The notes under the pieces were generated by a model. That model was not told the origin of the DNA. It worked only from the letters and a program-made list of their open reading frames with translations, and searched no databases. Below, piece after piece: positions 8,371 to 62,472 of a stretch of DNA of 64,000 nt. The position numbers and the translations under genes were made by a program. The stretch comes from Patescibacteria group bacterium UBA6532 (GTDB taxonomy: Bacteria > Patescibacteriota > Minisyncoccia > Minisyncoccales > UBA6532), in the NCBI GenBank assembly GCA_002434805.1, contig DJKW01000009.1, forward strand, positions 15,483 through 79,482, written 5' to 3'. Every line of letters starts with the position of its first letter. Positions within the stretch are counted from its first letter, which is position 1.

Positions 8371-8380
8371 ATAATTGTCT

Positions 8381-8741
8381 TAGTAGGTTGGGTGATCGCT
8401 CTCTCATTTTTCAATTGAAAGATGGGAAGGGAGGAAAGTCCGAACACTCATTTTCGCCATAAGGCGGATCTAAAAAAATAGCGGGTAACACCCGTCGGCC
8501 GCAAGGCTAGAGGTGCGAACAGAGACGTGCAAGACCGAAAGGTCAAGCAACCCTTTTAAAGGGTTAGACTGAGAAGTAATTCTCGGTGTGAAACGGCTAA
8601 ATCCTTATTGGGTGCAAGAACAAACATTTTGACAATCTCCGGATTTGCCAAAATGGAAAAGTAGTTCGCTTGAGTCAAAGAGCAATCTTTGGCCCAGATA
8701 GATGATCACATAAAGACAGAATTCGGCTTATAGATCTACTA
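8381..8741 (+). ncRNA. rnpB: RNase P RNA, bacterial type A
   Basis: Universal strings present: GGAGGAAAGTCCGAACAC, GGTAACACCCG, GTGCGAACAGAGA, GTGAAACGG, CCCAGATAGATGATCAC, ACAGAATTCGGCTTATAG. P1 pairing of tagtag (8381-8386) with ctacta (8736-8741). Ends approximate (+/-5 nt). Confidence 0.93.
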
Positions 8742-8746
8742 GGATA

Positions 8747-9254: not shown

Positions 9255-10412
9255 TTATTGATTTTTGAAATATTGAGACAGGCACTTTTTGAATTTTTCT
9301 AAATTCTTATTTTTAATTCTAAATCCAGCCGCTAAAGGATGACCTCCGTATGTTTTTAAGTATTGATTGCAGTTTATCATTGCTTTAACTCCGTTTGATC
9401 CTTTAGGAATTCTTACAGATCCCGGGCTTTCAACTTTCCCTTTTTTATAAAGAAAAACAGGTCTTTTGTATTTTTGGCAAAGTCTTGAGGCGACAGATCC
9501 CAAGAAGACTAATGTCCAGGACGAATCTCCTTCAAAAATAATTGTTTCTTTAGCAATATCCAGACGATCTTTCACTTCTTCTGTAATTCTTTTAATCGCA
9601 GCTCTTTTTTTCTTTACCTTAGCAGTTAAATCATTGGCCATTTTTTTTGCTTTCTTCAGATCTTTTTCTATTAAGAGCAAAAACCCTTCATTTAAATGGT
9701 CCTTGAGACCAGCTACGTTTAAAGGAGGAATAATTTTTTGTTTGATTTCCTCAATCCCGTCTCCATTAAAATCAGTTATCTTTTTTAAAGCACGTAATCC
9801 TGCTCTTTGAGTATAATTTAAAGCTAAAGCTCCTACTCTGACAAATTCTTCGTTTTCATCTTCAAGGATCATTTGGTCAGCTAAGGTAGCTAAAACTACT
9901 AGCTCTAAAAATCTTTCGGGGAGCCAAACTAAACTCGGTTCTTTTAGTTCAAATAAGCACTTTGAAAGCTTGTATGTAATACCGGCACAAGCTAACTGCT
10001 TAAAAGAATACTTATCTCCTTTTTGCTTTGGATTTACAATAATAGAAGCTTTAGGAACTTTGGGTAAGGGATTATGATGGTCAATAATTATTACTTCAAA
10101 GCCATTTTTTTTAGCTAAATCTACTTCTTTAACATTACTCATTGCGCAGTCAAAACTGATTAATAAGGCCGGAGCTTTCTTTTTTAAAACCTTTAATGCC
10201 TTTTCATTAATACCATATCCTTCTTTTTCGCGATCGGGAAAGTAAATTTGAACCGGCTTTAAGCCAAATTCTTCCAGGGTCTCTTTTAAAATAATAACGC
10301 TAATTACCCCGTCAGGATCAGCATCGCCGTATAAAATAACCTTTTCCTTAAATTCAACTGCTTTTAAAATTCGCTTAGCCGCTTTTTCTAAATTCTTTAT
10401 TTCTTTTCCCAT
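9255..10412 (-). CDS. recJ: DHH-family phosphoesterase, short RecJ-like exonuclease core
   Basis: DHH motifs GDADPDG, REKEGYGI, FDCAM, IIIDHHNP. GGHPLAAG in the DHHA1 region. Much shorter than full-length RecJ. Confidence 0.7.
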   Translation of the reverse strand: MGKEIKNLEKAAKRILKAVEFKEKVILYGDADPDGVISVIILKETLEEFGLKPVQIYFPDREKEGYGINEKALKVLKKKAPALLISFDCAMSNVKEVDLAKKNGFEVIIIDHHNPLPKVPKASIIVNPKQKGDKYSFKQLACAGITYKLSKCLFELKEPSLVWLPERFLELVVLATLADQMILEDENEEFVRVGALALNYTQRAGLRALKKITDFNGDGIEEIKQKIIPPLNVAGLKDHLNEGFLLLIEKDLKKAKKMANDLTAKVKKKRAAIKRITEEVKDRLDIAKETIIFEGDSSWTLVFLGSVASRLCQKYKRPVFLYKKGKVESPGSVRIPKGSNGVKAMINCNQYLKTYGGHPLAAGFRIKNKNLEKFKKCLSQYFKNQ

Positions 10413-10456
10413 TTTTAAATTCTAACAAAAAATCGTTTAAAATAAAACTATTAATC

Positions 10457-11885: not shown

Positions 11886-13535
11886 TTAAAACTTAATTAT
11901 TTCCCCCGGCTTTATTGTTCCTTCTTTTTTTTTACTGCCTTTGGAATCTCCTTCCTGATTTTTGGACTTGAGCGACTCTCTTAAAACGTCTTTTAATTCA
12001 CCTAAGTTCACCTCTTTTCTCTTTGGTCTTACTTCCTTAAAAGAAGTTGGTTTTTGTTCTGTCGCCTCTTTTAAAGAAAAATGGCGTGGGGTTGTTGGCT
12101 TTGAAAAATTTTGGGCTTTTTTCCGGCAAGACTTGCAGTAAACCGGCCTTACTCCGTCTGGGGCAAAAACTACTTTTGTCCATTTTTTACAACTAGAACA
12201 CTGGGCGTCATAAAGCTGAGGAGGAGATGACGCTGGTTTTTGAGAGGTTATTAGTAAATCTGAAAGTCCTGCCCAACGAGCAATCTTTTCATCAACAATT
12301 TTACGGAGGGTGCCGTATTTTTCCCGACAAAACCGAATAATCTCTTCTTTATTTGATCTTTCCAGTTTAAGCAAGGGAGCTATGGTTCTAGCTGAAAAAG
12401 GACGACCGGCTAATCCATCAATCATCAGCTTTAAATAAATATTGTACTTTCCTATATTAACAAGGTCTTCAGCAGTAAATTGGGGGGATAACTCTCTTTC
12501 TAAAAATTCAGCGTCTTCGGCTCCTATTCGAAAACAAATTATCGTTCCCACGTTTCCGAAAACAGCATCCCGCACCGTTTCGTCCATTTGAGCAATATAT
12601 TGGTGGCCCAAAATTAAAGCTAACCTATACTTTCTAGCTTCAGATAAAATATTAACAAAAGATTCGGTGGCAAAGTTTTGAAATTCATCAACGTATAAAT
12701 AAAAATCCTTTCTCTTTTCTTCTGGTATATCCACCCTCGACATGGCAGCTAACTGCAACTTGGTTATGATTAAAGCCCCTAAAAGTCTTGAATTATCCTC
12801 CCCTACTCTTCCTTTAGATAAATTTATAATCAGAATCTTTTGCTTATCCATGATTTCCCTCATATTGATTGAAGATTTTTCCTGACCGATAATATTTCGA
12901 ATCAAAGGGACGGAAATAAATTGACCGATTTTATTTTGAATGGCGGCTGTAGCTTCTACTTCATATCTTTGCGTATAGCGGGCAAATTCCTGGACCCAAA
13001 AACTCTTCACAACGGGATCTGTAACTTTATCTACCACTTTTTTCCGATAGTCGATATCAGCCAACATTCGATTAACCCCCAAAAGAGTGGATCCAGGATA
13101 CTCAAGAAGGGCTAAAATACAATTATTTAAAATATATTCCATACGGGCAGACCAAACATCCGGCCATATCTTTTTAAAAACTCCCATTAATCCTCCGGCC
13201 ACCAAATGCCTGTATTCTGGATTAATCTCTTCCATAATATTAAAAGCAATGGGATATCCTAAATCAGCCGGATTAAAATAAACTACATCCTTAATTCGTT
13301 CTTTAGGAATGAAGTCAAGAAGCTCTTCTGAAGCCTCTCCATGAGGATCAACAAAACCAATGCCCTTTCCTTGCTGAATATCTTGGATTGCCATGTTTTT
13401 AAGCATTACTGTCTTTCCCATGCCGGTTTTTCCCACAACATAAATATGCCGACGCCTATCGTCGGTCTTTATGCCAAATTTTTTATTAGCATTCCGAAAA
13501 GTGGTCTCGCCAAAAAAATTTATATTTTCATTCAT
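11886..13535 (-). CDS. TraD/VirD4 (type IV coupling protein)-like P-loop ATPase with C-terminal CxxC-x17-CxxC zinc ribbon
   Basis: Walker A VVGKTGMGKT; Walker B region FYLYVDEFQNF; SEARKYRLALILGHQYIAQM typical of TrwB/TraD-type ATPases. C-terminal CSSC-17 residues-CKSC followed by a K-rich tail. Confidence 0.75.
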   Translation of the reverse strand: MNENINFFGETTFRNANKKFGIKTDDRRRHIYVVGKTGMGKTVMLKNMAIQDIQQGKGIGFVDPHGEASEELLDFIPKERIKDVVYFNPADLGYPIAFNIMEEINPEYRHLVAGGLMGVFKKIWPDVWSARMEYILNNCILALLEYPGSTLLGVNRMLADIDYRKKVVDKVTDPVVKSFWVQEFARYTQRYEVEATAAIQNKIGQFISVPLIRNIIGQEKSSINMREIMDKQKILIINLSKGRVGEDNSRLLGALIITKLQLAAMSRVDIPEEKRKDFYLYVDEFQNFATESFVNILSEARKYRLALILGHQYIAQMDETVRDAVFGNVGTIICFRIGAEDAEFLERELSPQFTAEDLVNIGKYNIYLKLMIDGLAGRPFSARTIAPLLKLERSNKEEIIRFCREKYGTLRKIVDEKIARWAGLSDLLITSQKPASSPPQLYDAQCSSCKKWTKVVFAPDGVRPVYCKSCRKKAQNFSKPTTPRHFSLKEATEQKPTSFKEVRPKRKEVNLGELKDVLRESLKSKNQEGDSKGSKKKEGTIKPGEIIKF

Positions 13536-13537
13536 AA

Positions 13538-14854
13538 TTATTCTACAGGTAAACCAGGAGGAGAACCTCCTTTTTTAGATTTAACTCGAGAAATAAATGG
13601 AGCTGAAGCAACATCTCGACCCGGGAAATGAAATATTGTAGCTAACTCCTCTATGTTTAAGGTAAATGTTCCGCCAGGGCGAGGAAATAAAGGAGGAACT
13701 CTGCTTATATAGCGTTTAAATAACTTCCTTTTCCTTAAATATAATCTTCTGGGTATAATAAGATTTAAAGGTAAAAACCAGTGTTTTTTAATTTTTGTTA
13801 TGGTATTTGACCAGGGCCTTAAAGCATTGAGGTCAGCTGTAGCGAATTGCTGGAAAAAACCAAAAGGAATAGTTTTAACTGCTCCCTGGTAAACTTCTTT
13901 TTTTGCTAAATAAACAAACCTGATACTGCAATTAAACATCAGCCTGCTAATTTTTTGTTCTACCCCAGCGACAATATCCCTTTCTCCCGGAGTAAGCCTC
14001 ATTTCAGGCGGCATAATATCCATTGGTTTTTTCTCTTCGGTTTCTTCGGCTGTTTTCCCGCTAATTAATACTTCGGCGATCTGTTGAATTATTGATTTTC
14101 CTTTTGATTCATCCGGCCTCTTAGCTAATTTATCGGCTACTGCTCTTCCTTTAGCAGTATAAGGCAGTCCTTCTTGCGGATTTTTACTGTCTGTAATTGG
14201 TCCTGCCATGATTTGAACCCAAAGCTGTTCTCCAGGACCAAGTTTCCCCATTCCCTCTAAAAGAGTAGAAAGAGGGTCTATTCTTTTTTCTTCTTTGGGT
14301 GCGTCTGGTTTTTCTTCAAAAAACTTTGAATAGACTTTGATCGGATAAACATCATTTTTGGATAATTGATAATCTGTGGCCCACATGCTCCAGTTTTTAT
14401 TCGGTATGTCTTGGGGCACATACTTTGTATAATCATCAACTTCTGAAATTTCAGCATCAGGATATTGGGCAAAAATAGAGGATTCAATTGCAGATCGGCT
14501 TCTTTCAGGGAATCTTAAAAAAAAGTGGGGTTTACCATCAATACTCACTATCTCAAAGGATATGCTAAGAAGAGTTTTTCCGTCAATCCAATGCTCCCAC
14601 CAGTCTGCTGGATCGTAAACATTGCCCCAAAAGGCGGAAAAAACCTGCTCCATTGCCTTAACAGGCTTTAAAATTTCTTTTGGTATTGTAATTTCCAGCA
14701 CTACAAATTTTTGCTTGGAAATCCATAATTCAAATCTCCACCATCTCCACAAAAAGAAAAAAGGCCTATATAAAAGGAAAGGAAGTGCTATCCACCACCA
14801 ATTACTTAAAATGACCAAAACATTATTTGAATTTAAAAGCAGTTCTTGTGGCAT
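13538..14854 (-). CDS. Membrane protein partner of the T4CP-like ATPase (unknown family)
   Basis: 438-aa ORF ending 2 nt before the ATPase start. W/F-rich N-terminal TM pair (WWWIALPFLLYRPFFFLWRWW) followed by a large soluble domain. Confidence 0.6.
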   Translation of the reverse strand: MPQELLLNSNNVLVILSNWWWIALPFLLYRPFFFLWRWWRFELWISKQKFVVLEITIPKEILKPVKAMEQVFSAFWGNVYDPADWWEHWIDGKTLLSISFEIVSIDGKPHFFLRFPERSRSAIESSIFAQYPDAEISEVDDYTKYVPQDIPNKNWSMWATDYQLSKNDVYPIKVYSKFFEEKPDAPKEEKRIDPLSTLLEGMGKLGPGEQLWVQIMAGPITDSKNPQEGLPYTAKGRAVADKLAKRPDESKGKSIIQQIAEVLISGKTAEETEEKKPMDIMPPEMRLTPGERDIVAGVEQKISRLMFNCSIRFVYLAKKEVYQGAVKTIPFGFFQQFATADLNALRPWSNTITKIKKHWFLPLNLIIPRRLYLRKRKLFKRYISRVPPLFPRPGGTFTLNIEELATIFHFPGRDVASAPFISRVKSKKGGSPPGLPVE

Positions 14855-23000: not shown

Positions 23001-23861
23001 CTATTTTAGAGTATAGCTTATAATCTTATAAACCAATTTGGCAGCTAAAAAGTCTGGAGCGACCATGCCGGGAATGGGACAAAGCTCAACAACGTCAGCT
23101 CCGACTATGTTTTTCTTTTTTGCTACTTTTTCAATTAAATCCAAAACTTCGTACCAGCCAAGGCCACCGGGCACCGGCGTTCCAACCGAAGGCATAATCC
23201 CAGAATCAAAAACATCCAAATCTACGGTTAAATAAACGTCTTCAGTTAAATTCTCTAAAACTTTTTCAACCGGGATTTTCGGCGCTTGGAAAATATTCTT
23301 AATCTTTCCTGACTTCATGTAGTCTTCGGTCTCTGGGTCTATGCTGCGAATACCGACTTGAACCGTAGGAATTTTTAAATCTTGAATCCGGCGCATAACA
23401 CAAGCGTGGGTATAGCGGGAACCGCAGTATTCATCCAAAAGATCAAGGTGAGCATCAAGCTGTAAAACCGACAAGTTAGAATGTTTCTCTTTAAGAGCTT
23501 CTACGCCCCCAAGGGTAATGGAATGCTCTCCTCCCAAGAGAAAAGGAAATTTATCTTTGGACAAAATATCTCCAACCACCTCTTTTAAGCCGTCTATAGC
23601 TTCTCTGCCGGGACCGCAGCTTAATTCTGATTCATCAAAGGTAAAAATAGGAAAAGGATTACCTTCATCAAAAAAGAGCTCGTCTAACTGACGAGAAGCA
23701 TTAATAATGGCTCTGGGGCCCTCTCTGGTTCCCCCTCTCCAGCTGGTAGTTATATCATAAGGAACGGGAACTATGACAACTTTGGATTTTTTAAAATCCT
23801 GATTCTTTATCGCCCCGAAATTAAAAGGCCAGGTTTGAAGATAGTAGTCCTTTTTATTCAT
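23001..23861 (-). CDS. speB: Agmatinase (arginase/ureohydrolase family)
   Basis: GGEHSIT, LQLDAHLDL, TVDLDVFD metal-binding motifs. Start overlaps the dhs stop (ATGA). Ends in TAG. Confidence 0.85.
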   Translation of the reverse strand: MNKKDYYLQTWPFNFGAIKNQDFKKSKVVIVPVPYDITTSWRGGTREGPRAIINASRQLDELFFDEGNPFPIFTFDESELSCGPGREAIDGLKEVVGDILSKDKFPFLLGGEHSITLGGVEALKEKHSNLSVLQLDAHLDLLDEYCGSRYTHACVMRRIQDLKIPTVQVGIRSIDPETEDYMKSGKIKNIFQAPKIPVEKVLENLTEDVYLTVDLDVFDSGIMPSVGTPVPGGLGWYEVLDLIEKVAKKKNIVGADVVELCPIPGMVAPDFLAAKLVYKIISYTLK

Positions 23862-24907
23862 TTCTTAAAATAATTAACTATTTTTCTTTTAGTCTTTATT
23901 CTTTCTTCTAAGGCATGGGTTACAATGGGCAGGGCAATAGTAGCATCGCAGTAGCACTGAATATTTTTACCGGTCTCTGATTCTTTTCCCCAACTAATCG
24001 CTTCATCAAAGGTGCATCCTGAAAGCCCGCCCCATTGGGGAGCATCCGTAGTAATTTGAATTGCGTATTGATGGGGATAATAAGAATAAGGATCTTTGCC
24101 TCGAATGCTTTCATCCTTTCTCTTTGGTATTTTCCTTTCACTGTATTGTAAGGGAGAAGAAACAGCCATTAGTTGAATAAAATCTTTTGGCACTCCCCCG
24201 CCGATATAAATTACTCCTGTTTTTTTAATCTTTTCACCTATCTTGGTAAATTCTTTGAAATCTTTGACCTGGTCAATAACCACATTAAAACCGTCGTTTT
24301 TTGCCAAAAGAACAGCTTCGCCATAAGCTGAATCAACCAGGGCTGGTGAGAAAACAGGAACCTTGTATTTTGCTGCCATAGCTACAATGCTGTTAACATT
24401 TCTTTTTTGCAGCCATTTCCCGAATAATAATAAGAATTCTCTGGAAGAATAAATGTAATCTGGATCCAGGGTCTTAATGAAGTCAACAATAAGGTCAGTC
24501 ATATCTCCGTAATCTGGTTCATATCCATAAACATCATAATATCTGTTTATCTCTTTCTTAAACAATTTAATATCGTTAGGATGGATTTCTCCCTTCCAAT
24601 AATTTTTACCCATTGCTTCAACAATATCTTCTGAAATATTAGCTCCGGTTGAAACTATAATGTCAATGAACCTGTTTTCAATCAGCCAATTAACTATTTT
24701 CCATTGGCCAGTAGTGCTTAAAGATCCGGCGTAACCAAAAACAATAGTCAAGTCTTTGTCTTTTATCATCTTCTCCCAAACCTTAACTACCTCTCCCAAC
24801 CTTCTTCCCTGAAAGCCGGTATCTGCCATTTCATCCAAAAGCTTGGATATTTTCTTTTTCTTTACTTCAATTGCTTTAACTTTTTCTTTAAAATAAGGGT
24901 CCTTCAT
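23858..24907 (-). CDS. dhs: Deoxyhypusine synthase homologue
   Basis: DHS-fold strings GYAGSLSTTG, VSTGANISEDI, IYIGGGVPKDF. Start reassigned to MKDPYF (24907) because the longer track ORF overlaps pdaD. Confidence 0.8.
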   Translation of the reverse strand: MKDPYFKEKVKAIEVKKKKISKLLDEMADTGFQGRRLGEVVKVWEKMIKDKDLTIVFGYAGSLSTTGQWKIVNWLIENRFIDIIVSTGANISEDIVEAMGKNYWKGEIHPNDIKLFKKEINRYYDVYGYEPDYGDMTDLIVDFIKTLDPDYIYSSREFLLLFGKWLQKRNVNSIVAMAAKYKVPVFSPALVDSAYGEAVLLAKNDGFNVVIDQVKDFKEFTKIGEKIKKTGVIYIGGGVPKDFIQLMAVSSPLQYSERKIPKRKDESIRGKDPYSYYPHQYAIQITTDAPQWGGLSGCTFDEAISWGKESETGKNIQCYCDATIALPIVTHALEERIKTKRKIVNYFKK

Positions 24908-24915
24908 ATTTAGTT

Positions 24916-25458
24916 TTAGGGTATAAAAACGGCAGCTGCTACCGCTGAGGTCCAAAGACCGTTTTTGTCTCCCCTGGCTGTTTGAGTAATATTTGACGTA
25001 TAAACAATTTTTTTGCTTAAGATAAAAGCTTGACGCCGAGAATCCCAAGCATCTTCGGGATTAAATTTTATTCCCAAAGTTGAAGCTAGCATGGAAGCTG
25101 CCAAATCTTCAGAATAATCCCCGGCTTTTTCTTTCGTTAAACCAAAACCGTGATGCTCTGAAAGATAACCATAAGCATTATCACCAGAAGGAAGGGCATA
25201 ACCGATTGAGGAAGAGATTAAACGATTGGGCTCGTTAGTCTGGTTTCTGGCTAAAACCACGTAAACTATTTCTCCGGGGCTTAAAAGATCCAAACCTTTG
25301 TCTCTGGTTATTCTCTTGCAGGCTGGAGGTAAAATACTGGAAACTGAAACTAAATTAAATCGAGCAATCCCGGCACTTCTTAAAGCCACCTCAAAAGAAT
25401 GGAGATATTCTTTATGAACCCCCGCTCCCTTAGTAAGAAAAAATTTCGTTGGAATCAT
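24916..25458 (-). CDS. pdaD: Pyruvoyl-dependent arginine decarboxylase
   Basis: FLTKGAG...LHSFEVALRSAGIARFNLVSVSSILPP (self-cleavage SS site), archaeal PdaD-type length. Confidence 0.85.
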   Translation of the reverse strand: MIPTKFFLTKGAGVHKEYLHSFEVALRSAGIARFNLVSVSSILPPACKRITRDKGLDLLSPGEIVYVVLARNQTNEPNRLISSSIGYALPSGDNAYGYLSEHHGFGLTKEKAGDYSEDLAASMLASTLGIKFNPEDAWDSRRQAFILSKKIVYTSNITQTARGDKNGLWTSAVAAAVFIP

Positions 25459-25462
25459 ATTT

Positions 25463-25906
25463 TTATAAATTCTCCTTTTTAATCCTTCTTTTTCGGTAAA
25501 ACCGAGCCAAAGGAGATAATTTTAAATCTTTCTTTATTGCTCTTTGAGCCCTTTTTGATTTTGCCGCTGATTTATTTTTATATTTTTTTATCTGCCTTTG
25601 TAATTCATCCTTCACTTCAACAATGGAAAGGCGTAAATTATGAGATAGAGCTTCTGACCTCATACTTTTACCAGGAAAGCGCATTTGGCACTCGGCCCGG
25701 AAAAATGGTCCTTTTCTGTGATGTAAGGTAGTTTTACTAATTTCCACCCAAGCCTTCACTATCGGTTTTCTTTTAGTAAGATAGTCGTCAAAATATTCTT
25801 CCCGAAAAATATCAGAAAACTTCTCTAGTTGACCGATTTTCTTTTCAATAAAGTCTCGGAGAAATTTATTTAATTCAATATTTTTTGCTTTAATTACAAT
25901 TTTCAC
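25463..25906 (-). CDS. hpf: Ribosome hibernation promoting factor / RaiA family (GTG start)
   Basis: N-terminus (M)KIVIKAKNIELNKFLRDFIEKKIGQLEKF matches the HPF/YfiA pattern. Basic C-terminus. Confidence 0.7.
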   Translation of the reverse strand: MKIVIKAKNIELNKFLRDFIEKKIGQLEKFSDIFREEYFDDYLTKRKPIVKAWVEISKTTLHHRKGPFFRAECQMRFPGKSMRSEALSHNLRLSIVEVKDELQRQIKKYKNKSAAKSKRAQRAIKKDLKLSPLARFYRKRRIKKENL

Positions 25907-27013: not shown

Positions 27014-28207
27014 CTATGATAACACAACTCTCATCAAAGCCAACTGCTTTATTTGCCCTAATTTCCCTTTTTGGCAAGCTCTTTCAGAAAACTTTTCTAC
27101 TCCGTTTTTCCCCTTGCCATAAATCAATAAAGGAATCGTTTCTGAGCAATGGCTTTTTAATTGAGAACAGGTAGCGTGATCTCCGGTAACAACAATTAAA
27201 GTATTATTTAAATTTAAAAGCGTCTTTATGTTAACATCAATCTTTTCAATAAATCTTTTCTTCCCTAGAAAGTTTCCGTCTTCAGCTAAGCTGTCTGTAG
27301 CTTTAATGTGTAAAAATACAAAATCGTATTTCTTAAGTGACTTTTTAACTGCTAAAATCTTCCCTTTGAGGTTTGTCGTGGGAAACCCGGTAGCTCCTTT
27401 AACTAAAATTAAATCCATTCCCAGAATTTTTCCAATTCCTTTGTAAAGGCCGCCGCCGGCTATACAACAAGCTTTTAAGCCGTATCTTTCTTTAAAGCTT
27501 GGCGTTCTTTTTAATCGGCCAGCTCCCCGAACTAAAAGGTAGTTAGCTGGCAAAAGCCCTCGCTTCTCCCTTTCTCTATTTAAGGGATGCCCTTTTAAAA
27601 TTTGATGGGCTCTTTCTAAAAATTCGTTTAAAACTTTTGCTGTTAACTTAGCTTCTTTGGAATTGTCTTTTGCTGAAATTTCTTTTACCTTCTTCCCCAC
27701 TTCTTTTGGATCGCCATTGCTAATCTCAGAAGAAAGACCCTTGCCCCTTAAAACTAAGACCGCTCTATGACCATAAGATTTCTTAATTATAATCTTAACC
27801 CCTTTAATCCTTGTTTTAGCCAAGCTTTTGATTAAAGGCTGAGTATTTTCAATTCTTCCTGATCTCCGATCCAAAACCTTAAAGTTCTTATCAACTGTAG
27901 CAAAATTAGCCCTCAAAGCTATATCTCCTTTTTTTAATTTAATTCCAATTCCCATTGCTTCATAGGGACCCCGGCCCAAATAATATTTATTGGGATCGTA
28001 GCCAAATAAAGCTAAGTGGCAGGTATCGGAAGCTGGTTTTTCTTGTGAAGAAAATAAAAAAGGCTTTATTAAACCAGAAACACCTTCTTTAGTTAAAGAA
28101 TCCAAATTAGAAGTCTTGGCCGCTTCCAAAGGAGTTTTATTTCCTAAAACCCTAATAGTTTTATCACCTAAACCGTCAATAACGATAAAGATTATTTTCT
28201 TTTTCAT
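27014..28207 (-). CDS. apgM: Cofactor-independent phosphoglycerate mutase, archaeal ApgM type
   Basis: IVIDGLGD, HIKATDSLAEDG, VTGDHAT metal-site motifs; about 400 aa. Confidence 0.8.
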   Translation of the reverse strand: MKKKIIFIVIDGLGDKTIRVLGNKTPLEAAKTSNLDSLTKEGVSGLIKPFLFSSQEKPASDTCHLALFGYDPNKYYLGRGPYEAMGIGIKLKKGDIALRANFATVDKNFKVLDRRSGRIENTQPLIKSLAKTRIKGVKIIIKKSYGHRAVLVLRGKGLSSEISNGDPKEVGKKVKEISAKDNSKEAKLTAKVLNEFLERAHQILKGHPLNREREKRGLLPANYLLVRGAGRLKRTPSFKERYGLKACCIAGGGLYKGIGKILGMDLILVKGATGFPTTNLKGKILAVKKSLKKYDFVFLHIKATDSLAEDGNFLGKKRFIEKIDVNIKTLLNLNNTLIVVTGDHATCSQLKSHCSETIPLLIYGKGKNGVEKFSERACQKGKLGQIKQLALMRVVLS

Positions 28208-28312
28208 TAATTTATTATACCACCAAAAAACCCAACACCGAAGGCGCAGGGATTTTTTTCTTAACCAAAACTATCATTAACAATATTAATATTAATGTGA
28301 TTTTAATAAAAA

Positions 28313-32048: not shown

Positions 32049-32609
32049 ATGATTTCACACACTAATCTTAAAAAAGGAGTTAGGATTATCTTAGATAAAG
32101 AGCCTTACGAGGTTCTGGAATCCAACTTAATGAAAAAAGCTCAGAGAAGAGTGATAATCCAAACCAAAATCAAAAATCTTATTACCGGCAACGTATTATC
32201 CAGAAACTTCCACCAGGGAGATGTTTTTGAGGAGGCTGAAATCTCTAAATTTGCAGCTAAGTTTATCTATTGCCACCGCGATAAATTCATCTTCTCTAAA
32301 GATGGTGATCATTCAAAGCGCTTTCATTTCAATAAAGAACATATTTTATCTATTATTGGATTCCTAAAGCCCAACCAAAAGGTAGAGGCCCTGGAATTCG
32401 ATGGCATAATCATTAATATTTCTTTGCCGATAAAAATCCAGTTAAAAGTTATTGAAGCTCCCCCTGGAGTCAAAGGAGAAAGGTCTCAATCTGGAAACAA
32501 AGTAGTCAGCTTAGAAACAGGAACTAAAATAAATGTCCCCCTTTTCATCAAAGAGGGAGACATTATTGAAATAAATACAGAAAGGGCTGAATACGTCAGA
32601 AGAATTTGA
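32049..32609 (+). CDS. efp: Elongation factor P (atypical modification loop)
   Basis: Three-domain EF-P layout, C-terminal GTKINVPLFIKEGDIIEINT. The loop reads MKKAQRR instead of KPGKG. Confidence 0.85.
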   Translation: MISHTNLKKGVRIILDKEPYEVLESNLMKKAQRRVIIQTKIKNLITGNVLSRNFHQGDVFEEAEISKFAAKFIYCHRDKFIFSKDGDHSKRFHFNKEHILSIIGFLKPNQKVEALEFDGIIINISLPIKIQLKVIEAPPGVKGERSQSGNKVVSLETGTKINVPLFIKEGDIIEINTERAEYVRRI

Positions 32610-42564: not shown

Positions 42565-43341
42565 CTATTTTAAGCTGAACTTCTCTCTTACTTCCTTATA
42601 CATATCTTTATAAATATGCATGCTGACTGAAAAATGAGTATAAGTTCCCGTGTCCACTGAAAGCTCGTCTGCCATATACTTTTGGAGAGCGGTAAAAGCG
42701 TAAGCGTTTTCCGGCCAGGCATTATAAAGATCATTAGTCTTCATGACGACAAACATATGGAGTTTTCCATCAACCAGCTGAGGATAAAACAATAAAACGC
42801 AGGGTGAAGAAGAATCCTCTCTTTTAGGCCCGAATTTCATTAAATCCCTGTAAGGAATCCAAGTATGCATTACTACTGTTCTCCGGGTGGGATCTTTCTT
42901 TAAAATGCCTATTGCTTTTTCAACCTGGTCTATCCGCTTTACAACACACTTTCCATCAGGGGAAATCTTTTTAATCTCTTCGGCTAATTCTTCGTCAGTA
43001 TCAGTTACGCTCGGTAAAAATGCCCTGACTTTACAGTCCGGATAGCAGCGAAGCCGGGAATAATAAGTATAGTCAAAGCTGTTCTCGTTTTCCTTGCCAG
43101 AGCCCTCTAAAAACTTCTTGGCGTATTCATCAGCCAACTCTTTAGTGGTATTGGTTTTATTACTCAGCCTTGGCTCAGAAAAAGGGTCTGAAACCTTAAT
43201 TAAAAGCGGGATATCTTTTGTTTCAATTTGGTATTCTGGAGCCTGGACGTGCCGATCGTGCCCCTCTGTCATTATTAAAATACAGGACTTTTCCCAGGCC
43301 TCTCCTAAGTTTTTTGCTTCTATTATTTTTGTTTCGTACAT
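42565..43341 (-). CDS. Thymidylate synthase-fold protein, divergent archaeal-like (ThyA / pyrimidine C5-transferase family)
   Basis: DQVEKAIGILKKDPTRRTVV, catalytic SSSPCVLLFYPQLVDGKLHMFVVMKTNDLYNAWPENAYAF, SVSMHIY. Canonical RSxD reads KTND. Confidence 0.7.
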   Translation of the reverse strand: MYETKIIEAKNLGEAWEKSCILIMTEGHDRHVQAPEYQIETKDIPLLIKVSDPFSEPRLSNKTNTTKELADEYAKKFLEGSGKENENSFDYTYYSRLRCYPDCKVRAFLPSVTDTDEELAEEIKKISPDGKCVVKRIDQVEKAIGILKKDPTRRTVVMHTWIPYRDLMKFGPKREDSSSPCVLLFYPQLVDGKLHMFVVMKTNDLYNAWPENAYAFTALQKYMADELSVDTGTYTHFSVSMHIYKDMYKEVREKFSLK

Positions 43342-43344
43342 AAA

Positions 43345-44187
43345 TTAGTCAAACCAGTCGTACTCATTATCTTGTTTAACTGATTCTTTTTTTAAAATTA
43401 ATTCGCTGCCTTGTTCGTAATCTAGGTCATTCTTGAGAGCAATTTCCGCTTTTTGGAGCTCTCTTGCCAAATACATTGAATGCTCTCTGGTCTGTTTAAA
43501 GTCCCCTATTAAATCCAGATTGGCAATTGTTTTGGAAATACCTTCTGCTGAATCTCCGATTATTTTCCTCATTAGCTTACTATCTTGATAATGTTCAGCA
43601 ATAATTTTCTTTCTCTTCCTCTCGATAGAAATAACAAAAAAACCTTTAGGGTCAATTACAAAATCAGGACAAGACCTTGCTTCTATCTCTTCTACTTCTT
43701 TAATCTCTATGGGTTTTCCGTCAAAAGGCCCTGGATTTTGTTTTAAATAACTATTAACCTTTTCCATTATTCTTGAAGGATTTTCTTCCGGCATTAAATC
43801 TATAGGGGCTACTTGTTTACGAAATCTCTCTATTATGTCTTTATTAACGCTTCTTAAAAAAGGAATATTCCCTTTAGCTCCTATAATCCTCTTTTTTTCA
43901 TCAACTCCGTTTTTTTTCAGGGAAATAAATGCCTGGGAAACAAAGTGTCCTTTTGAAACCTTCCCGCAAAGAATGAGAAATCTGATGTGGGGATTGGAAA
44001 CAATGTTTTGAATAATTTTTTCAATACCGATGTTTTCTGTAACGCACTTGCCAATGATTGAAACTTTTTCCATATCCAGGTCAATTCCAGCTACCGTGGC
44101 ATTAGTGCATACGGCCACTGCTGATTTCACATTACCTACTTTATACCTTCCTTCCAGCGGCGGCCACTTTTTAAGGTCCCCTGCCAT
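43345..44187 (-). CDS. Soluble MtrA-like (corrinoid-binding methyltransferase subunit A homologue) fused to a DUF4346-like C-terminal domain
   Basis: WPPLEGRYKVGN, AVAVCT, TENIGIEKIIQNIVSNPHIRFLILCGKVSKGH, NGVDEKKRIIGAKGNIPFL align with methanogen MtrA as recalled. No TM helix. C-half DPKGFFVISIE.... Confidence 0.7.
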   Translation of the reverse strand: MAGDLKKWPPLEGRYKVGNVKSAVAVCTNATVAGIDLDMEKVSIIGKCVTENIGIEKIIQNIVSNPHIRFLILCGKVSKGHFVSQAFISLKKNGVDEKKRIIGAKGNIPFLRSVNKDIIERFRKQVAPIDLMPEENPSRIMEKVNSYLKQNPGPFDGKPIEIKEVEEIEARSCPDFVIDPKGFFVISIERKRKKIIAEHYQDSKLMRKIIGDSAEGISKTIANLDLIGDFKQTREHSMYLARELQKAEIALKNDLDYEQGSELILKKESVKQDNEYDWFD

Positions 44188-44192
44188 TCTGA

Positions 44193-44768
44193 TTATTTTT
44201 TAAAATCCTGGTTAATTCTGCTCGCTCTCGGTGATTTTTGGTTTGCGTACTTTTGACCTTCTTTCTTAGAATAAGGAGTTTCGCAAGGAGAAGAAAGCGT
44301 TTCAAAGGTTAAAGCGCAAATCCGCATTCCCGAGTATAAAACAACAGGCATAATTCCCAAATTTCCCAATTCCATTACGGCATTCCCCTGCCAACCCGGA
44401 TCAAATCTGGAAGCGGTAGAATGAACTACTATTCCAAGCCTGCCCAAAGAGCTTCTCCCGTCAAGCCTGGCCATTAGGTCTGAAGGCAAGGTGAAGTCTT
44501 CTTTGGTTGTTGCTAAAATAAATGCTTTTGGCTGGAGAATAAATGGAGCATCATCTTCTATCTCTACTTCTTCCATGAATTTCTCAAAATCAATTTTTCT
44601 TTTGAGGTCTAAATAAGGATACTGGCTGGGTTTAAAGGTTTTAAAAATGTTCCCCAAATGCAAGTCTAAAGAACAAGGTCCCAGTTGTTCCTTTAAATTC
44701 GGCTCTGGCTCTATTTTTATTTTGCCAGATTTTAGGTATTCTTTAATGTCTTTATCTGAAAGAATCAT
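44193..44768 (-). CDS. dcd: dCTP deaminase (possibly bifunctional DCD-DUT type)
   Basis: MILSDKDI, GPCSLDLHLG, LDGRSSLGRLG, ELGNLG, YANQKS. Close to the M. jannaschii-type enzyme as recalled. Confidence 0.9.
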   Translation of the reverse strand: MILSDKDIKEYLKSGKIKIEPEPNLKEQLGPCSLDLHLGNIFKTFKPSQYPYLDLKRKIDFEKFMEEVEIEDDAPFILQPKAFILATTKEDFTLPSDLMARLDGRSSLGRLGIVVHSTASRFDPGWQGNAVMELGNLGIMPVVLYSGMRICALTFETLSSPCETPYSKKEGQKYANQKSPRASRINQDFKK

Positions 44769-44773
44769 ATGAT

Positions 44774-45196
44774 TTATTCAACGGTTATTCCCATATTGCG
44801 AGCTGTACCTTCAATTATTTTCATTGCCTGTTCAAGATCGGTAGTATTTAAATCCTCCAGCTTCTTTTTAGCGATTTCTCTTAACTGGGTTTTGCTAATT
44901 TTCGCCACCTTGGTCTTATTAGGCTCTCCTGACCCTTTCTCAATTCCCACTGCTTTCTTTAAAAGCTCAGAAGCCGGGGGCTGCTTTAATTTAAAAGCAT
45001 AAGTTCTGTCTTCAAAAACCGTAATCTCTACTGGAATTTTAAAACCAACGTTATTTTTAGTAGCGTCATTAAATTTCTGGCAGAATTCGGAGATATTCAA
45101 TCCGTGTTGAGCTAAAGCCGGTCCCACCGGAGGGGCGGGCGTTGCTTTAGAAGCTGGTATCTGAAGTTTTATAACAGCTTTAATTTTTTTTGGCAT
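44774..45196 (-). CDS. rplK: 50S ribosomal protein L11
   Basis: [38 protein letters not shown]. Confidence 0.97.
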
Positions 45197-45200
45197 ATGA

Positions 45201-45746
45201 TTAAATCTTTTTAATTTGCAAAGAATCTAATTCGACAGGCGTATCCCTTCCGAACATATTTACTAATACCTTTATTTTACCTCTTGATTCATCTACTTCT
45301 GAAACCTTCCCGTCAAAATCTTTAAAGGGGCCGTCAACAACCTTTACGGCATCACCAGCTTTAACGTCAATTTTGTACTGTGGAGTTTCAACCCCCATCC
45401 TTTTCTTTAAAGTTTCTATCTCTTCAAGGGAAACGGGTACCGGCGTAGTGCCCGCTCCGACAAATCCCGTAACATTAGGGGTATTTCTCACAACGTACCA
45501 GGAATCGTCAGTAACGATCATTTCTACCAGAACATAGCCCGGATAAATTTTTTCTTCTACTATTTTTCTTTTACTGTTCTTAATCTTAATCTTTTTCTCT
45601 TTAGGGACGATAACATCAAAAATTTTATCTTCCATACTCAAAGATTCGATCCTTTGCTTTAAGTTTCTCGCTACAGCGTCCTCGTAGCCAGAGTAAGTAT
45701 GAATAACATACCAATTTCTCTCTTTGGAAATTTGTTGCTTTGGCAT
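45201..45746 (-). CDS. nusG: Transcription termination/antitermination factor NusG
   Basis: [14 protein letters not shown] domain, KOW motif [18 protein letters not shown]. Confidence 0.95.
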
Positions 45747-58081: not shown

Positions 58082-58468
58082 TTAAAGAATAATTTGCCTA
58101 AGACCAAAAACCAAACCAAGAATCAAAAGAATAGGAAGTAAAAGCCAAAAGAAAATGGCTAATATCCCCAAAAAAAAGATAATAACTTCTATTGCTGTCC
58201 CGATAATAATCAAGAAAACTCTCATTATCGCCCCCAAAACTCTAGAAAGAACGTTAAAAACAAGAACTTCAAAAAACCTCTTTATGTCAAAACCCCGGCC
58301 GTAGGAAATATTATATCTTCGCCAAGGAGAAAATAAGGTTTTCAAGAGTTCTGGTATTGAAAAATAGTTCAAATTAAACTTAAGGAGATTTTTCAAAGCC
58401 CCAAAAATCAACCTTGTCTGATCAACAAAATACCACTCCACAAATTGGAATAAAATATTCTGGTTCAT
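58082..58468 (-). CDS. Small membrane protein, unknown function
   Basis: 128-aa ORF with 2 C-terminal TM helices, 3 nt upstream of the Clp-like gene. Confidence 0.5.
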   Translation of the reverse strand: MNQNILFQFVEWYFVDQTRLIFGALKNLLKFNLNYFSIPELLKTLFSPWRRYNISYGRGFDIKRFFEVLVFNVLSRVLGAIMRVFLIIIGTAIEVIIFFLGILAIFFWLLLPILLILGLVFGLRQIIL

Positions 58469-58518
58469 CGCTTTTATTATACCACTCTTTATGTCTTACT
58501 TTCTACTTTATTTATTAG

Positions 58519-59253: not shown

Positions 59254-60404
59254 TCAGTTTTGTTTTCTTTTGCGGAAAAATAATAACACTAAAATTATTA
59301 CTAACACCAAACCGAATCCTGCTAATAGTTTAGTTAATGACAAGCCCTCGTTTTGAATTAATATTCCGGCGGCCTCAACTATTGAAGCCTGGGCTTTGGC
59401 TAGATCTAAAGGAAAATTATCTCTTGAATCTATAACTCCATCTCCATCGCTATCTTCTATTAAAAAATTGGTTCCAAGGTCTATTTCCTCTTTATCTGAA
59501 AGGCCGTCATTGTCGGTATCTGGACTTAAGGGGTCAGTTCCAAAAACAAACAACTCTTCCTCATCGGCTATTCCGTCATTATCATCATCTAAATCAGTAT
59601 TATTCCCTAAACCATCTTTATCTGTGTCTTGCCATTCGGTTGAATCTAAAGAAAAGACGTCATCTCCATCTTCAACCATATCTCCGTCAGTATCTCTGTT
59701 AAATGAATCGGTGCCAACAATTTTCTCGACTTCATCGGCTACTCCGTCATTGTCGTCATCTAAATCAGCGTTATTTCCAATACTGTCGCCGTCATTATCT
59801 TCGCTTTCAGCTGGATTAAGAGGGAAAACATCTTCCTTGTCAGCCACTCCATCTCCATCGCTATCTGGATTTAAGGGGTCAGTTCCTAAAATTACCTCTT
59901 TGCTGTCTAAAAGACCGTCTTCGTCATCATCTAAATCTTTAACGTTTCCTATGCCGTCTCCGTCAGTATCTAAGTCAACGAAATATTTTCTCGAGTAGCT
60001 ACGTTATCTATCGGACTCTCGTCTTGAAAATTGGTTCCAATAATTTTAGCCTGGACATCATAAATACCTGCTTTAATTTGCCAGTCGATAAAAACATCGT
60101 CATAAGTACTGGCCTTAATAGAAATGGGTTGAGGGTCTGTAATTATTTCATCATTGATTAAAAAAACAACGAATCCGTAAACGTCTACATCGCCAACATT
60201 AAATATCCTGGCGAAAATTCTAATCTTATCTCCTTCTAAAGGGTCTTCCTTAGAAAAAGTTATATCAGATACTTTAAGAGAAAGATCTACTTTGGCCAAA
60301 GAATCCTTAATAGAGAATGTAAGGATTAAAAATATTATTATCAGTACCAGAGTTATTGAAAATGGCTTCTTCATAATATAGTTCAACTGTTTAAATTCTA
60401 CCAT
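59254..60404 (-). pseudogene. Surface protein (signal/TM + CARDB-like beta-sandwich + thrombospondin type-3 Ca-binding repeats + C-terminal TM) split by an apparent 1-nt frameshift at about 59975-60003
   Basis: Upstream ORF (59970-60404) ends ...DNVATRENISLT*. The other frame is open from 60003 and reads ...FVDLDTDGDGIGNVKDLDDDEDG..., continuing into the 59254-59847 ORF (DxDxDGxxDxxD repeats). No start codon precedes the first repeats. Confidence 0.6.
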
Positions 60405-60422: not shown

Positions 60423-60454
60423 AAAAAAAACTGCACTAGAATAGTCTAGTGCAG
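60423..60454 (-). terminator. Strong intrinsic terminator ending the 16S transcription unit
   Basis: Perfect 9-bp stem ctgcactag/ctagtgcag (60431-60454) with a 6-nt loop, followed on the minus strand by U8 (A-run 60423-60430). Confidence 0.75.
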
Positions 60455-60482
60455 TAAAAGCAAAACAGCTTTGTTAATATTG

Positions 60483-60501
60483 GTTCTTTAGAGTTGTCCT
60501 G
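60483..60501 (-). repeat. 3' half of the 16S processing stem
   Basis: gttctttagagttgtcctg is the exact reverse complement of 62111-62129 (19 bp). Confidence 0.75.
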
Positions 60502-60608
60502 GATCTCGTTTTAAGGTGTCGAGATCAACACCTTGTAGTTAAAATCCGAATTCCAGATTTCAACTACAGTCGACAACTATAATGTCTACAAATAACAAAA
60601 TTATTTGT

Positions 60609-62101
<1,493 letters not shown>

Positions 62102-62110
62102 AAACCTAGT

Positions 62111-62129
62111 CAGGACAACTCTAAAGAAC
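62111..62129 (-). repeat. 5' half of the 16S processing stem
   Basis: caggacaactctaaagaac is complementary to 60483-60501, about 10 nt upstream of the mature 5' end. Confidence 0.75.
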
Positions 62130-62219
62130 TAATTACTTGCCTTGTTAAATTCCGCGAGGTAGAAATTTCGCTAAAAGCGAAATTATTTAACAAGAATGAA
62201 TTTTCAAAGTACAGGTTTT

Positions 62220-62271
62220 AAAAAAATAAAACCGTGAAGACAACAAACTATATTTCGATACCTTCACGGTT
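62220..62271 (-). terminator. Terminator-like hairpin plus U-run between tRNA-Thr/P1 and the 16S
   Basis: 10-bp stem aaccgtgaag/cttcacggtt (62230-62239 with 62262-71), 22-nt loop, then UUAUUUUUUU on the minus strand. Confidence 0.45.
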
Positions 62272-62353
62272 CTACTTTATGATGTCTTTTTTGTTGAATT
62301 TTATTTAACCATGCGCACCAATATTTTTTTATATCTTTAACCTTTCTATTCCA

Positions 62354-62382
62354 ATTATATTACCTTAATAAATCTCTGTCAA
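62354..62382 (-). promoter_or_regulatory. Perfect consensus sigma70 promoter TTGACA-17-TATAAT upstream of the 16S leader
   Basis: Minus-strand TTGACA 62377-62382 and TATAAT 62354-62359. Confidence 0.65.
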
Positions 62383-62397
62383 CCCCGTTAGAAATAC

Positions 62398-62472
62398 TGG
62401 AGCCGACGGTCGGATTCGAACCAACGACCTACTGTTTACAAAACAGTTGCTCTACCACTGAGCTACGTCGGC
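62398..62472 (-). tRNA. tRNA-Thr (anticodon UGU), CCA encoded
   Basis: GCCGACGTAGCTCAGTGGTAGAGCAACTGTTTTGTAAACAGTAGGTCGTTGGTTCGAATCCGACCGTCGGCTCCA. Confidence 0.92.

Follow-up and report, generated by a model that had tools for sequence, protein, structure and literature searches.

The 16S rRNA gene in the window (by which we mean the whole 64,000-nt stretch of DNA that was analysed) encodes an rRNA whose anti-Shine-Dalgarno motif (anti-SD) is missing: CCUCC is replaced by UACAA, and few of the genes on the same contig are preceded by a Shine-Dalgarno (SD) site. We consider it very likely that this is a functional 16S rRNA, probably present in a single copy, from which the anti-SD has been lost, and that start codons are selected in this organism independently of SD sequences, probably by way of accessible start regions, coupling of adjacent genes and leaderless mRNAs.

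Loss of the anti-SD in Parcubacteria is a known phenomenon, published in 2022, and was described for other reduced genomes in 2012 and 2020. According to the 2022 survey (Tsurumaki et al. 2022, RNA 28:1041, PMC9297842), the anti-SD motif is detected in only 48% of Parcubacteria, and the Parcubacteria that lack it overlap the group that lacks ribosomal protein uL1. Lim et al. (2012, PMC3457768) had found 15 of 1,182 complete genomes to be without the motif and without an SD signal, the cases being Carsonella, Sulcia, Blattabacterium, three Flavobacteria and haemotropic mycoplasmas, and speculated that a U-rich tail pairs with A-rich leaders. Nikolaeva et al. (2020) reported that anti-SD loss is frequent in genomes smaller than 1 Mb and goes together with ribosomal protein loss. 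The initial annotation of this DNA, which described anti-SD loss as rare and reported in a few lineages, was right that the loss is on record and undersold the literature as to its rarity, about half of the Parcubacteria being affected (PMC9297842).

The window closely fits the description given by Tsurumaki et al., namely a lineage of the CPR/Parcubacteria type in which CCUCCU is absent from the 3' end of the 16S rRNA, and the phenomenon as such is therefore already published for Parcubacteria. In the portion of that paper on which we draw, the motif was scored for presence or absence only, and SD usage, replacement sequences and alternative signals were not analysed. Here, we report SD usage, replacement sequences and initiation signals for one marine genome and, in less depth, for its 17 relatives. 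The additions are incremental, namely the quantified absence of SD sites, the absence of a compensatory motif, the spectrum of replacement pentamers and a set of candidate initiation signals. Together, they would make this genome a clean, independently replicated example of a widespread environmental bacterial group that translates without the SD mechanism, and they point to specific genes of a CPR bacterium that can be tested for leaderless expression, and to specific gene pairs that can be tested for coupling. There are practical consequences as well: gene finders that rely on ribosome-binding site motifs will mis-call starts in such genomes, and any primer or probe designed to terminate in the CCUCC tail will fail, as will motif-based annotation of the 16S 3' end.

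The anti-SD site of the 16S rRNA

The 16S rRNA gene was aligned to the Rfam bacterial small-subunit model, which it matches over the full length; its score (Table 1), set against the RF00177 gathering score of 50, is that of a bacterial 16S rRNA. At the 3' end, the alignment has GGUAGGGGAACCUGUCGGUGGAUCA UACAA UUU where the consensus has ...GGAUcA CCUCC UUu, so that 5 of the 5 anti-SD positions (60616-60612) are substituted and the length is unchanged. A string search of the 212-nt trailer, from 60616 down to the next gene, found no CCTCC, CTCC or CCTC. The sole CCU of the trailer belongs to ACACCUU, within a hairpin about 100 nt downstream, and a shift of the anti-SD downstream by insertion was rejected as an explanation, the whole trailer being devoid of any CCUCC-like string. 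With neither CCUCC nor CCUCCU, the tail is of the non-anti-SD type in the sense of Lim et al. (2012) and Nikolaeva et al. (2020). The mature 3' end of the rRNA is the putative one, placed by homology.

These results agree with the initial annotation, which had described helix 45 and GGAUCA as intact, the tail as lacking CCUCC, and the trailer as free of CCUCC up to 60483-60501. The 10 pairs and GGAA loop of helix 45 are recovered in the Rfam alignment, UACAA occupies the aligned anti-SD positions, the lack of CCUCC extends over 212 nt, and the bases quoted for 60616-60601, UACAAUUUACAAAUAA, are exactly those of the sequence.

Table 1. Features of the window that bear on translation initiation, with positions in the whole stretch
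Feature	Position	Strand	Basis
16S rRNA gene, full length (1493 nt)	60609..62101	minus	Rfam RF00177, 1408.9 bits, model positions 1-1533, untruncated
Helix 45 (10 bp, GGAA loop) and GGAUCA (60622-60617)	60617..60650	minus	Rfam consensus alignment and sequence
Former anti-SD site, UACAA (60616-60612) in place of CCUCC, then UUU	60609..60616	minus	Rfam alignment
12-bp A/U hairpin from the sixth base after GGAUCA	60585..60611	minus	-8.2 kcal/mol for the 48 nt beginning with GGAUCA (ViennaRNA)
rRNA processing stem, 3' strand	60483..60501	minus	perfect 19-nt complement of leader 62129-62111
Intrinsic terminator 3' of 16S, 11-bp stem and T run	60430..60455	minus	sequence
rRNA processing stem, 5' strand (leader)	62111..62129	minus	complement of 60501-60483
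rRNA promoter TTGACA, 17-nt spacer, TATAAT (12/12 matches, sigma-70)	62354..62382	minus	sequence motif
Extended -10 TGGTATAAT, 7 nt (aaaagcg) before ATG of ORF 58082-58468	58469..58484	minus	leaderless geometry
Extended -10 TGGTATAAT, 6 nt (aaatta) before ATG of phosphoglycerate mutase gene 27014-28207	28208..28222	minus	leaderless geometry
Extended -10 TGTTAGAAT, 6 nt (ttaaaa) before ATG of DHH-family gene 9255-10412	10413..10427	minus	leaderless geometry
nusG (45201-45746), rplK/uL11 (44774-45196), then dcd	44193..45746	minus	Pfam

Upstream regions of protein-coding genes

From the long non-overlapping ORFs of the window, we kept the 45 with ATG as the first start codon, and defined an SD core as GGAG, GAGG or AGGA at -20..-3; 50 kb of E. 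coli K-12, passed through the identical pipeline, served as the control. An SD core precedes 3/45 window genes as against 24/40 E. coli K-12 genes (Fisher p = 9e-8). The same search in the 10-kb flanks, where 19 genes had been called by other pipelines, returned 2 with a core, and with the flanks added the comparison becomes 5/64 against 24/40 (Fisher p = 1e-8). Neither GGAGG nor AGGAG occurs at -20..-1 of the 45 window genes, and the rare GGAG-like strings, at distances of about 11 to 22 nt from the start, are in most cases farther upstream than a working SD would be. The mean energy of duplexes with ACCUCCUUA is -1.9 kcal/mol in the window versus -6.1 kcal/mol in E. coli. In the 45 window genes, the region upstream of starts is approximately 85-90% A+T and depleted of G, which accounts for 0-16% of the bases at positions -12..-1. 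Over about 84 kb, the sequences upstream of coding regions show neither an enrichment of SD-like motifs nor a G-rich signal, as is the case in genomes classed as lacking the anti-SD.

The contrast with E. coli gives numbers to the impression, recorded when the sequence was first read, that the regions upstream of starts are A/T-rich and SD-free; the names then given to thrS, pgk, the T4CP-like ATPase, lepA, nusG, miaB, NIF3 and efp are confirmed by Pfam. The further proposal that initiation is SD-independent genome-wide is supported by the loss of both the anti-SD and SD sites, shown for only the approximately 84 kb of one contig.

One gene stands apart. An HMGL-like gene with a TTG start (L146 7847, right flank, minus strand) has AGAGGAG at -13..-7, the only well-spaced SD-like motif in about 84 kb, which may reflect recent acquisition or chance. 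The release factor gene in the right flank encodes RF1 (PAT motif) and is therefore uninformative on the SD-dependent programmed frameshift of prfB.

Signals at start codons and routes of initiation

Start codons of the window lie in a trough of structure and of GC content. Mean folding energy in 40-nt windows is -1.5 kcal/mol at starts, compared with about -3.4 to -5.9 kcal/mol at distances of at least 40 nt on either side, and the GC content reaches its minimum, 23%, centred on the start codon. Genes are also closely packed: at 43 same-strand junctions, the gap is no more than 20 nt in 26 cases and no more than 10 nt in 22, with overlap in 6, the arrangement expected for termination-reinitiation.

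A third signal comes from promoters. We defined an extended -10 element as TGnTAnnnT with at least 5/6 matches to TATAAT, which gives 35 sites in the window. In three of the 35, exactly 6-7 nt separate the end of the site from the first ATG of an ORF downstream (Table 1), where 0.03 would be expected (Poisson p = 4e-6, for a pattern noticed post hoc), and TAGAAT without the TG stands 6 nt before the ATG at 14854. The genes starting at 58468, 28207 and 10412 are, on this promoter geometry, candidates for leaderless expression. As in the leaderless-mRNA systems of Actinobacteria, Deinococcus, archaea and mitochondria, 3-4 genes have a -10 box placed 6-7 nt ahead of their ATG, an arrangement that needs no SD; unlike in those systems, the geometry is found at a minority of operon-first genes (only 3-4 of approximately 22) and is read here from promoter sequences.

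These observations can be assembled into a model. The five anti-SD bases have decayed from CCUCC to UACAA, with the neighbouring helix 45 and GGAUCA kept, so that SD:anti-SD pairing is no longer available to the ribosome for choosing start codons; nor do the mRNAs carry an SD or a replacement motif. Three routes might then lead the ribosome to the start codon. The A/U-rich, unstructured zone centred on every start codon would make the AUG accessible, probably with the help of bS1 (the window contains no gene for bS1 or IF3). Approximately half of the genes, which lie no more than 10 nt from an upstream stop codon or overlap it, could be translated through termination-reinitiation coupling. Finally, some operon-first genes may be read from leaderless mRNAs, as suggested by the -10 box 6-7 nt before the ATG. 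That accessibility, coupling and leaderless mRNAs are the working mechanisms here is what we infer by analogy with Bacteroidia, with leaderless mRNAs elsewhere and with E. coli ribosomes carrying an altered anti-SD.

Related genomes and the history of the loss

Relatives were collected by scanning one genome per species for the exact string of helix 45 plus GGAUCA, which yielded 17 species labelled as Paceibacteria, Paceibacterota, Nealsonbacteria, Wildermuthbacteria or Patescibacteria, with Saccharibacteria appearing through automated 'TPA_asm' labels. The window 16S rRNA is 83-88% identical to those of the 17 species, which indicates that the window organism is a distinct lineage within the same class-level group. 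Identity in this range to genomes labelled Paceibacteria, Nealsonbacteria and Wildermuthbacteria, combined with an identical helix 45, supports a place for the organism in the Parcubacteria (Paceibacteria) and the CPR affiliation that the initial annotation had assumed.

When the 16S tails of these relatives are compared, CCUCC proves to be missing in 16/17 species with the identical helix 45. Its place is taken by CUACA in five species, by UCACA, UAUAA, UUUCU and UUCUU in two species each, and by CUACU, CAUCA and CUUAA in one species each. GGAUCA and the U-rich triplet after the pentamer are mostly kept, so that only the bases that would pair with an SD have decayed. The genes next to the rRNAs of the relatives (1-6 genes per locus) have A/U-rich, SD-free upstream regions. 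The changes run from C to U or A with GAUCA retained, as in the genomes described by Lim et al. (2012, PMC3457768), with which the window and its relatives also share the lack of a G-rich upstream signal, its replacement by A-rich sequence, and the association with small genomes. Unlike those genomes, which belong to insect endosymbionts or blood parasites, the present one comes from a marine, probably episymbiotic CPR bacterium, and the loss in Parcubacteria spans a deep, species-rich radiation rather than small clades.

Among the 17 relatives, only one (L012, JAHISJ010000002.1) keeps CCUCC, and the six genes beside its rRNA have no SD-like sequence despite that retention. These six genes are a weak hint that SD sites fell out of use first and that the anti-SD decayed later. 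The trait, which is common to a large part of the Parcubacteria, fits an origin in which the anti-SD decayed neutrally after SD use had ceased. A more elaborate scenario joins this hint to the structure of the 3' end: a whole deep branch of Parcubacteria would have dropped SD initiation before the anti-SD decayed, would now rely almost entirely on accessibility, coupling and leaderless mRNAs, and would retain the tail, of the form NNNNN-UUU, and the hairpin just after it (Table 1), conserved in structure, for a role of their own. We regard this as rather unlikely in its entirety. If it is true, the tail and hairpin might act in 30S maturation or mRNA loading, and these abundant environmental bacteria would offer a natural, non-endosymbiont model of SD-free translation, possibly tied mechanistically to the loss of uL1.

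The retention of CCUCC in one relative with SD-free genes also recalls Bacteroidia, in which initiation is SD-independent genome-wide and start regions are A-rich and unstructured, as they are here (Jha et al. 2021, PMC7797042; PMC13000453). There, the anti-SD is not lost and instead is silenced by bS21, bS18 and bS6. It is very improbable that SD blindness of this kind explains the present case: the upstream regions resemble those of Bacteroidia in being rich in A and devoid of SD sites, and the genes of that relative would be compatible with a blind state that preceded the loss, but the canonical CCUCC that Bacteroidia retain in the 16S rRNA, and use for the regulation of rpsU and prfB (PMC7797042; PMC13000453), is absent from the window 16S rRNA, which leaves nothing to sequester. 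Sequestration of the Bacteroidia type is accordingly inapplicable to the window organism and can describe only an ancestral stage.

Expression and copy number of the 16S rRNA gene

Loss of the anti-SD, as we read it, concerns a working 16S rRNA gene. The gene forms a stand-alone transcription unit (60430-62382), unlinked to a 23S gene, preceded by tRNA-Thr (62398-62472) and followed by a protein gene. Its promoter matching at 12/12 positions, its 19-bp processing stem and its terminator (Table 1) make the gene look active, with every sign of expression and processing that can be read from sequence; a gene for RNase III lies just outside the window, in the left flank. The 16S assembles uniquely with both flanks, on contigs of up to 87 kb, and is therefore probably the single copy in the genome.

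Could another rRNA operon with a canonical anti-SD serve most of translation, the window 16S being a degenerate or specialised copy? The analysis covers a single contig of the genome, and heterogeneous rRNA operons exist in some bacteria, but the full-length, high-scoring Rfam match and the complete set of promoter, processing stem and terminator do not suggest a degenerate copy, unique assembly with both flanks in many assemblies would be unusual for a multi-copy rRNA, and there are no genes with SD sites for a canonical copy to read. We therefore judge a second operon of this kind to be highly improbable.

The sequence beyond the tail has features of its own. The 48 nt after GGAUCA fold with -10.0 kcal/mol (z = -2.9 relative to shuffles, ViennaRNA), and folding of 18 trailers gives, in roughly half of them or more, a hairpin beginning 6-11 nt after GGAUCA, its position constant and its sequence varied. 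Located 3' of this hairpin is a conserved element, GUCGAY...GUUGAAR-hairpin-UUUAACU (window 60483-60611 and loci L001-L017). The hairpin and the element are probably a group-specific rRNA processing signal.

Downstream of the 16S unit, the annotated ATG of ORF 59970-60404, at 60404, sits within the gene's own promoter, TTGATA-18-TAGAAT at 60424-60395, the -10 box of which, TGGTAGAAT, ends at 60395. Translation of this ORF probably begins instead at an ATG near 60374 (MKKPFSITLVL...) or at a TTG near 60386.

Pairing capacity of the new tail

A changed anti-SD might have co-evolved with a new motif in the mRNAs, such that the tail UACAAUUU... would pair with, for example, UUGUA or AAAUUGUA. The tail is indeed non-random among relatives, with CUACA recurring in five species and the following UUU mostly kept, and the idea has a precedent in the speculation of Lim et al. 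(2012) on U-rich tails and A-rich leaders. Against it, mean duplex energies with the real tail (8, 13 or 16 nt) are weaker than those with most shuffled tails or upstream regions, 88 to 100 of 100 shuffles pairing at least as well as the real sequences, and the tail varies between relatives, yet their upstream regions are all simply A/U-rich. Tail-complementary k-mers are not enriched upstream of the 45 window genes (TTGTA 3/45, ATTGT 3/45, AATTG 1/45), and the commonest upstream k-mers are pure A/T, such as AATAA and ATAAA, partly on account of upstream TAA stop codons. By the shuffling controls and k-mer counts, a compensatory new SD motif is rejected, and we give very little credence to co-evolved pairing.

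Independent assemblies

The tail was traced through other assemblies by means of the exact sequence of the protein encoded just downstream of the 16S rRNA, which retrieved eight. Besides two from NCBI (GCA_002998485.1 and GCA_001048895.1), these are JGI 3300020423 and 3300022225, ENA ERZ27245248, ERZ23491564 and ERZ27245254, and Logan SRR28208100. In 8/8 of these independent assemblies, the tail and the following 110 nt are identical, as are the 120 nt that immediately precede the next gene. The window itself is identical to part of NYZL01000064.1 (GCA_002687125.1, 86,971 bp). Several samples with the window organism are marine, for instance from Tara Oceans. A pattern scan of metagenomes for TCGGTGGATCATACAA gave 113 matches, only 2 of them in a 16S context; the others are chance matches of a 16-mer.

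That a real organism with CCUCC lies behind a chimera, or behind a mistake of assembly or consensus, at the 16S 3' end, an objection that the initial annotation had itself raised for 60600-60616 and that draws on the frequent mis-assembly of rRNA genes in metagenomes, can be dismissed with near certainty, because eight assemblies from different projects and assemblers agree on the tail and 110 nt beyond it, two metagenome contigs with the tail were also found by pattern search, the 16S is embedded contiguously in contigs of 70-87 kb, and the same kind of loss is seen in 16/17 related species.

The uL1 locus

In the window, rplK is followed after 5 nt by dcd, in place of rplA, the gene for uL1, and the order nusG-rplK-dcd recurs in 6 independent assemblies. 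Pfam scans of window ORFs of about 90 aa or more found no L1 domain, and none appears in the annotations of the flanks. At this locus, then, rplA is missing from its usual place after rplK, which matches the correlation between anti-SD and uL1 in Tsurumaki et al. (2022). Three genes occupy the place where rplA-rplJ-rplL would be expected: within 42565-45196 (minus strand), rplK is followed by genes for dCTP deaminase, an MtrA-like protein (pterin-binding DUF4346) and a weakly matching thymidylate-synthase-like protein (E = 3.6e-13). Judging by these domains, the cluster may be an unusual module for dTMP synthesis.

Other genes in the window

A cluster of polyamine genes at 23001-25906 (minus strand) encodes an agmatinase (Arginase family), a deoxyhypusine-synthase homologue (PF01916, E = 6.5e-90) and a pyruvoyl-dependent arginine decarboxylase, and adjoins a gene for a hibernation factor (S30AE). 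The presence of a deoxyhypusine-synthase homologue within a polyamine gene cluster is unusual for a CPR bacterium; the gene for EF-P (efp) is also in the window, at 32049-32609. A bacterial type A RNase P RNA is encoded at 8380-8746 on the plus strand (137 bits). At 11886-14854 (minus strand), a gene for a type IV coupling protein-like ATPase, with TrwB/TraG domains and a treble-clef zinc finger, is followed by one for a DUF8128-like protein; by their domain content, these genes may belong to a system for the uptake or transfer of DNA of the kind that is typical of CPR.
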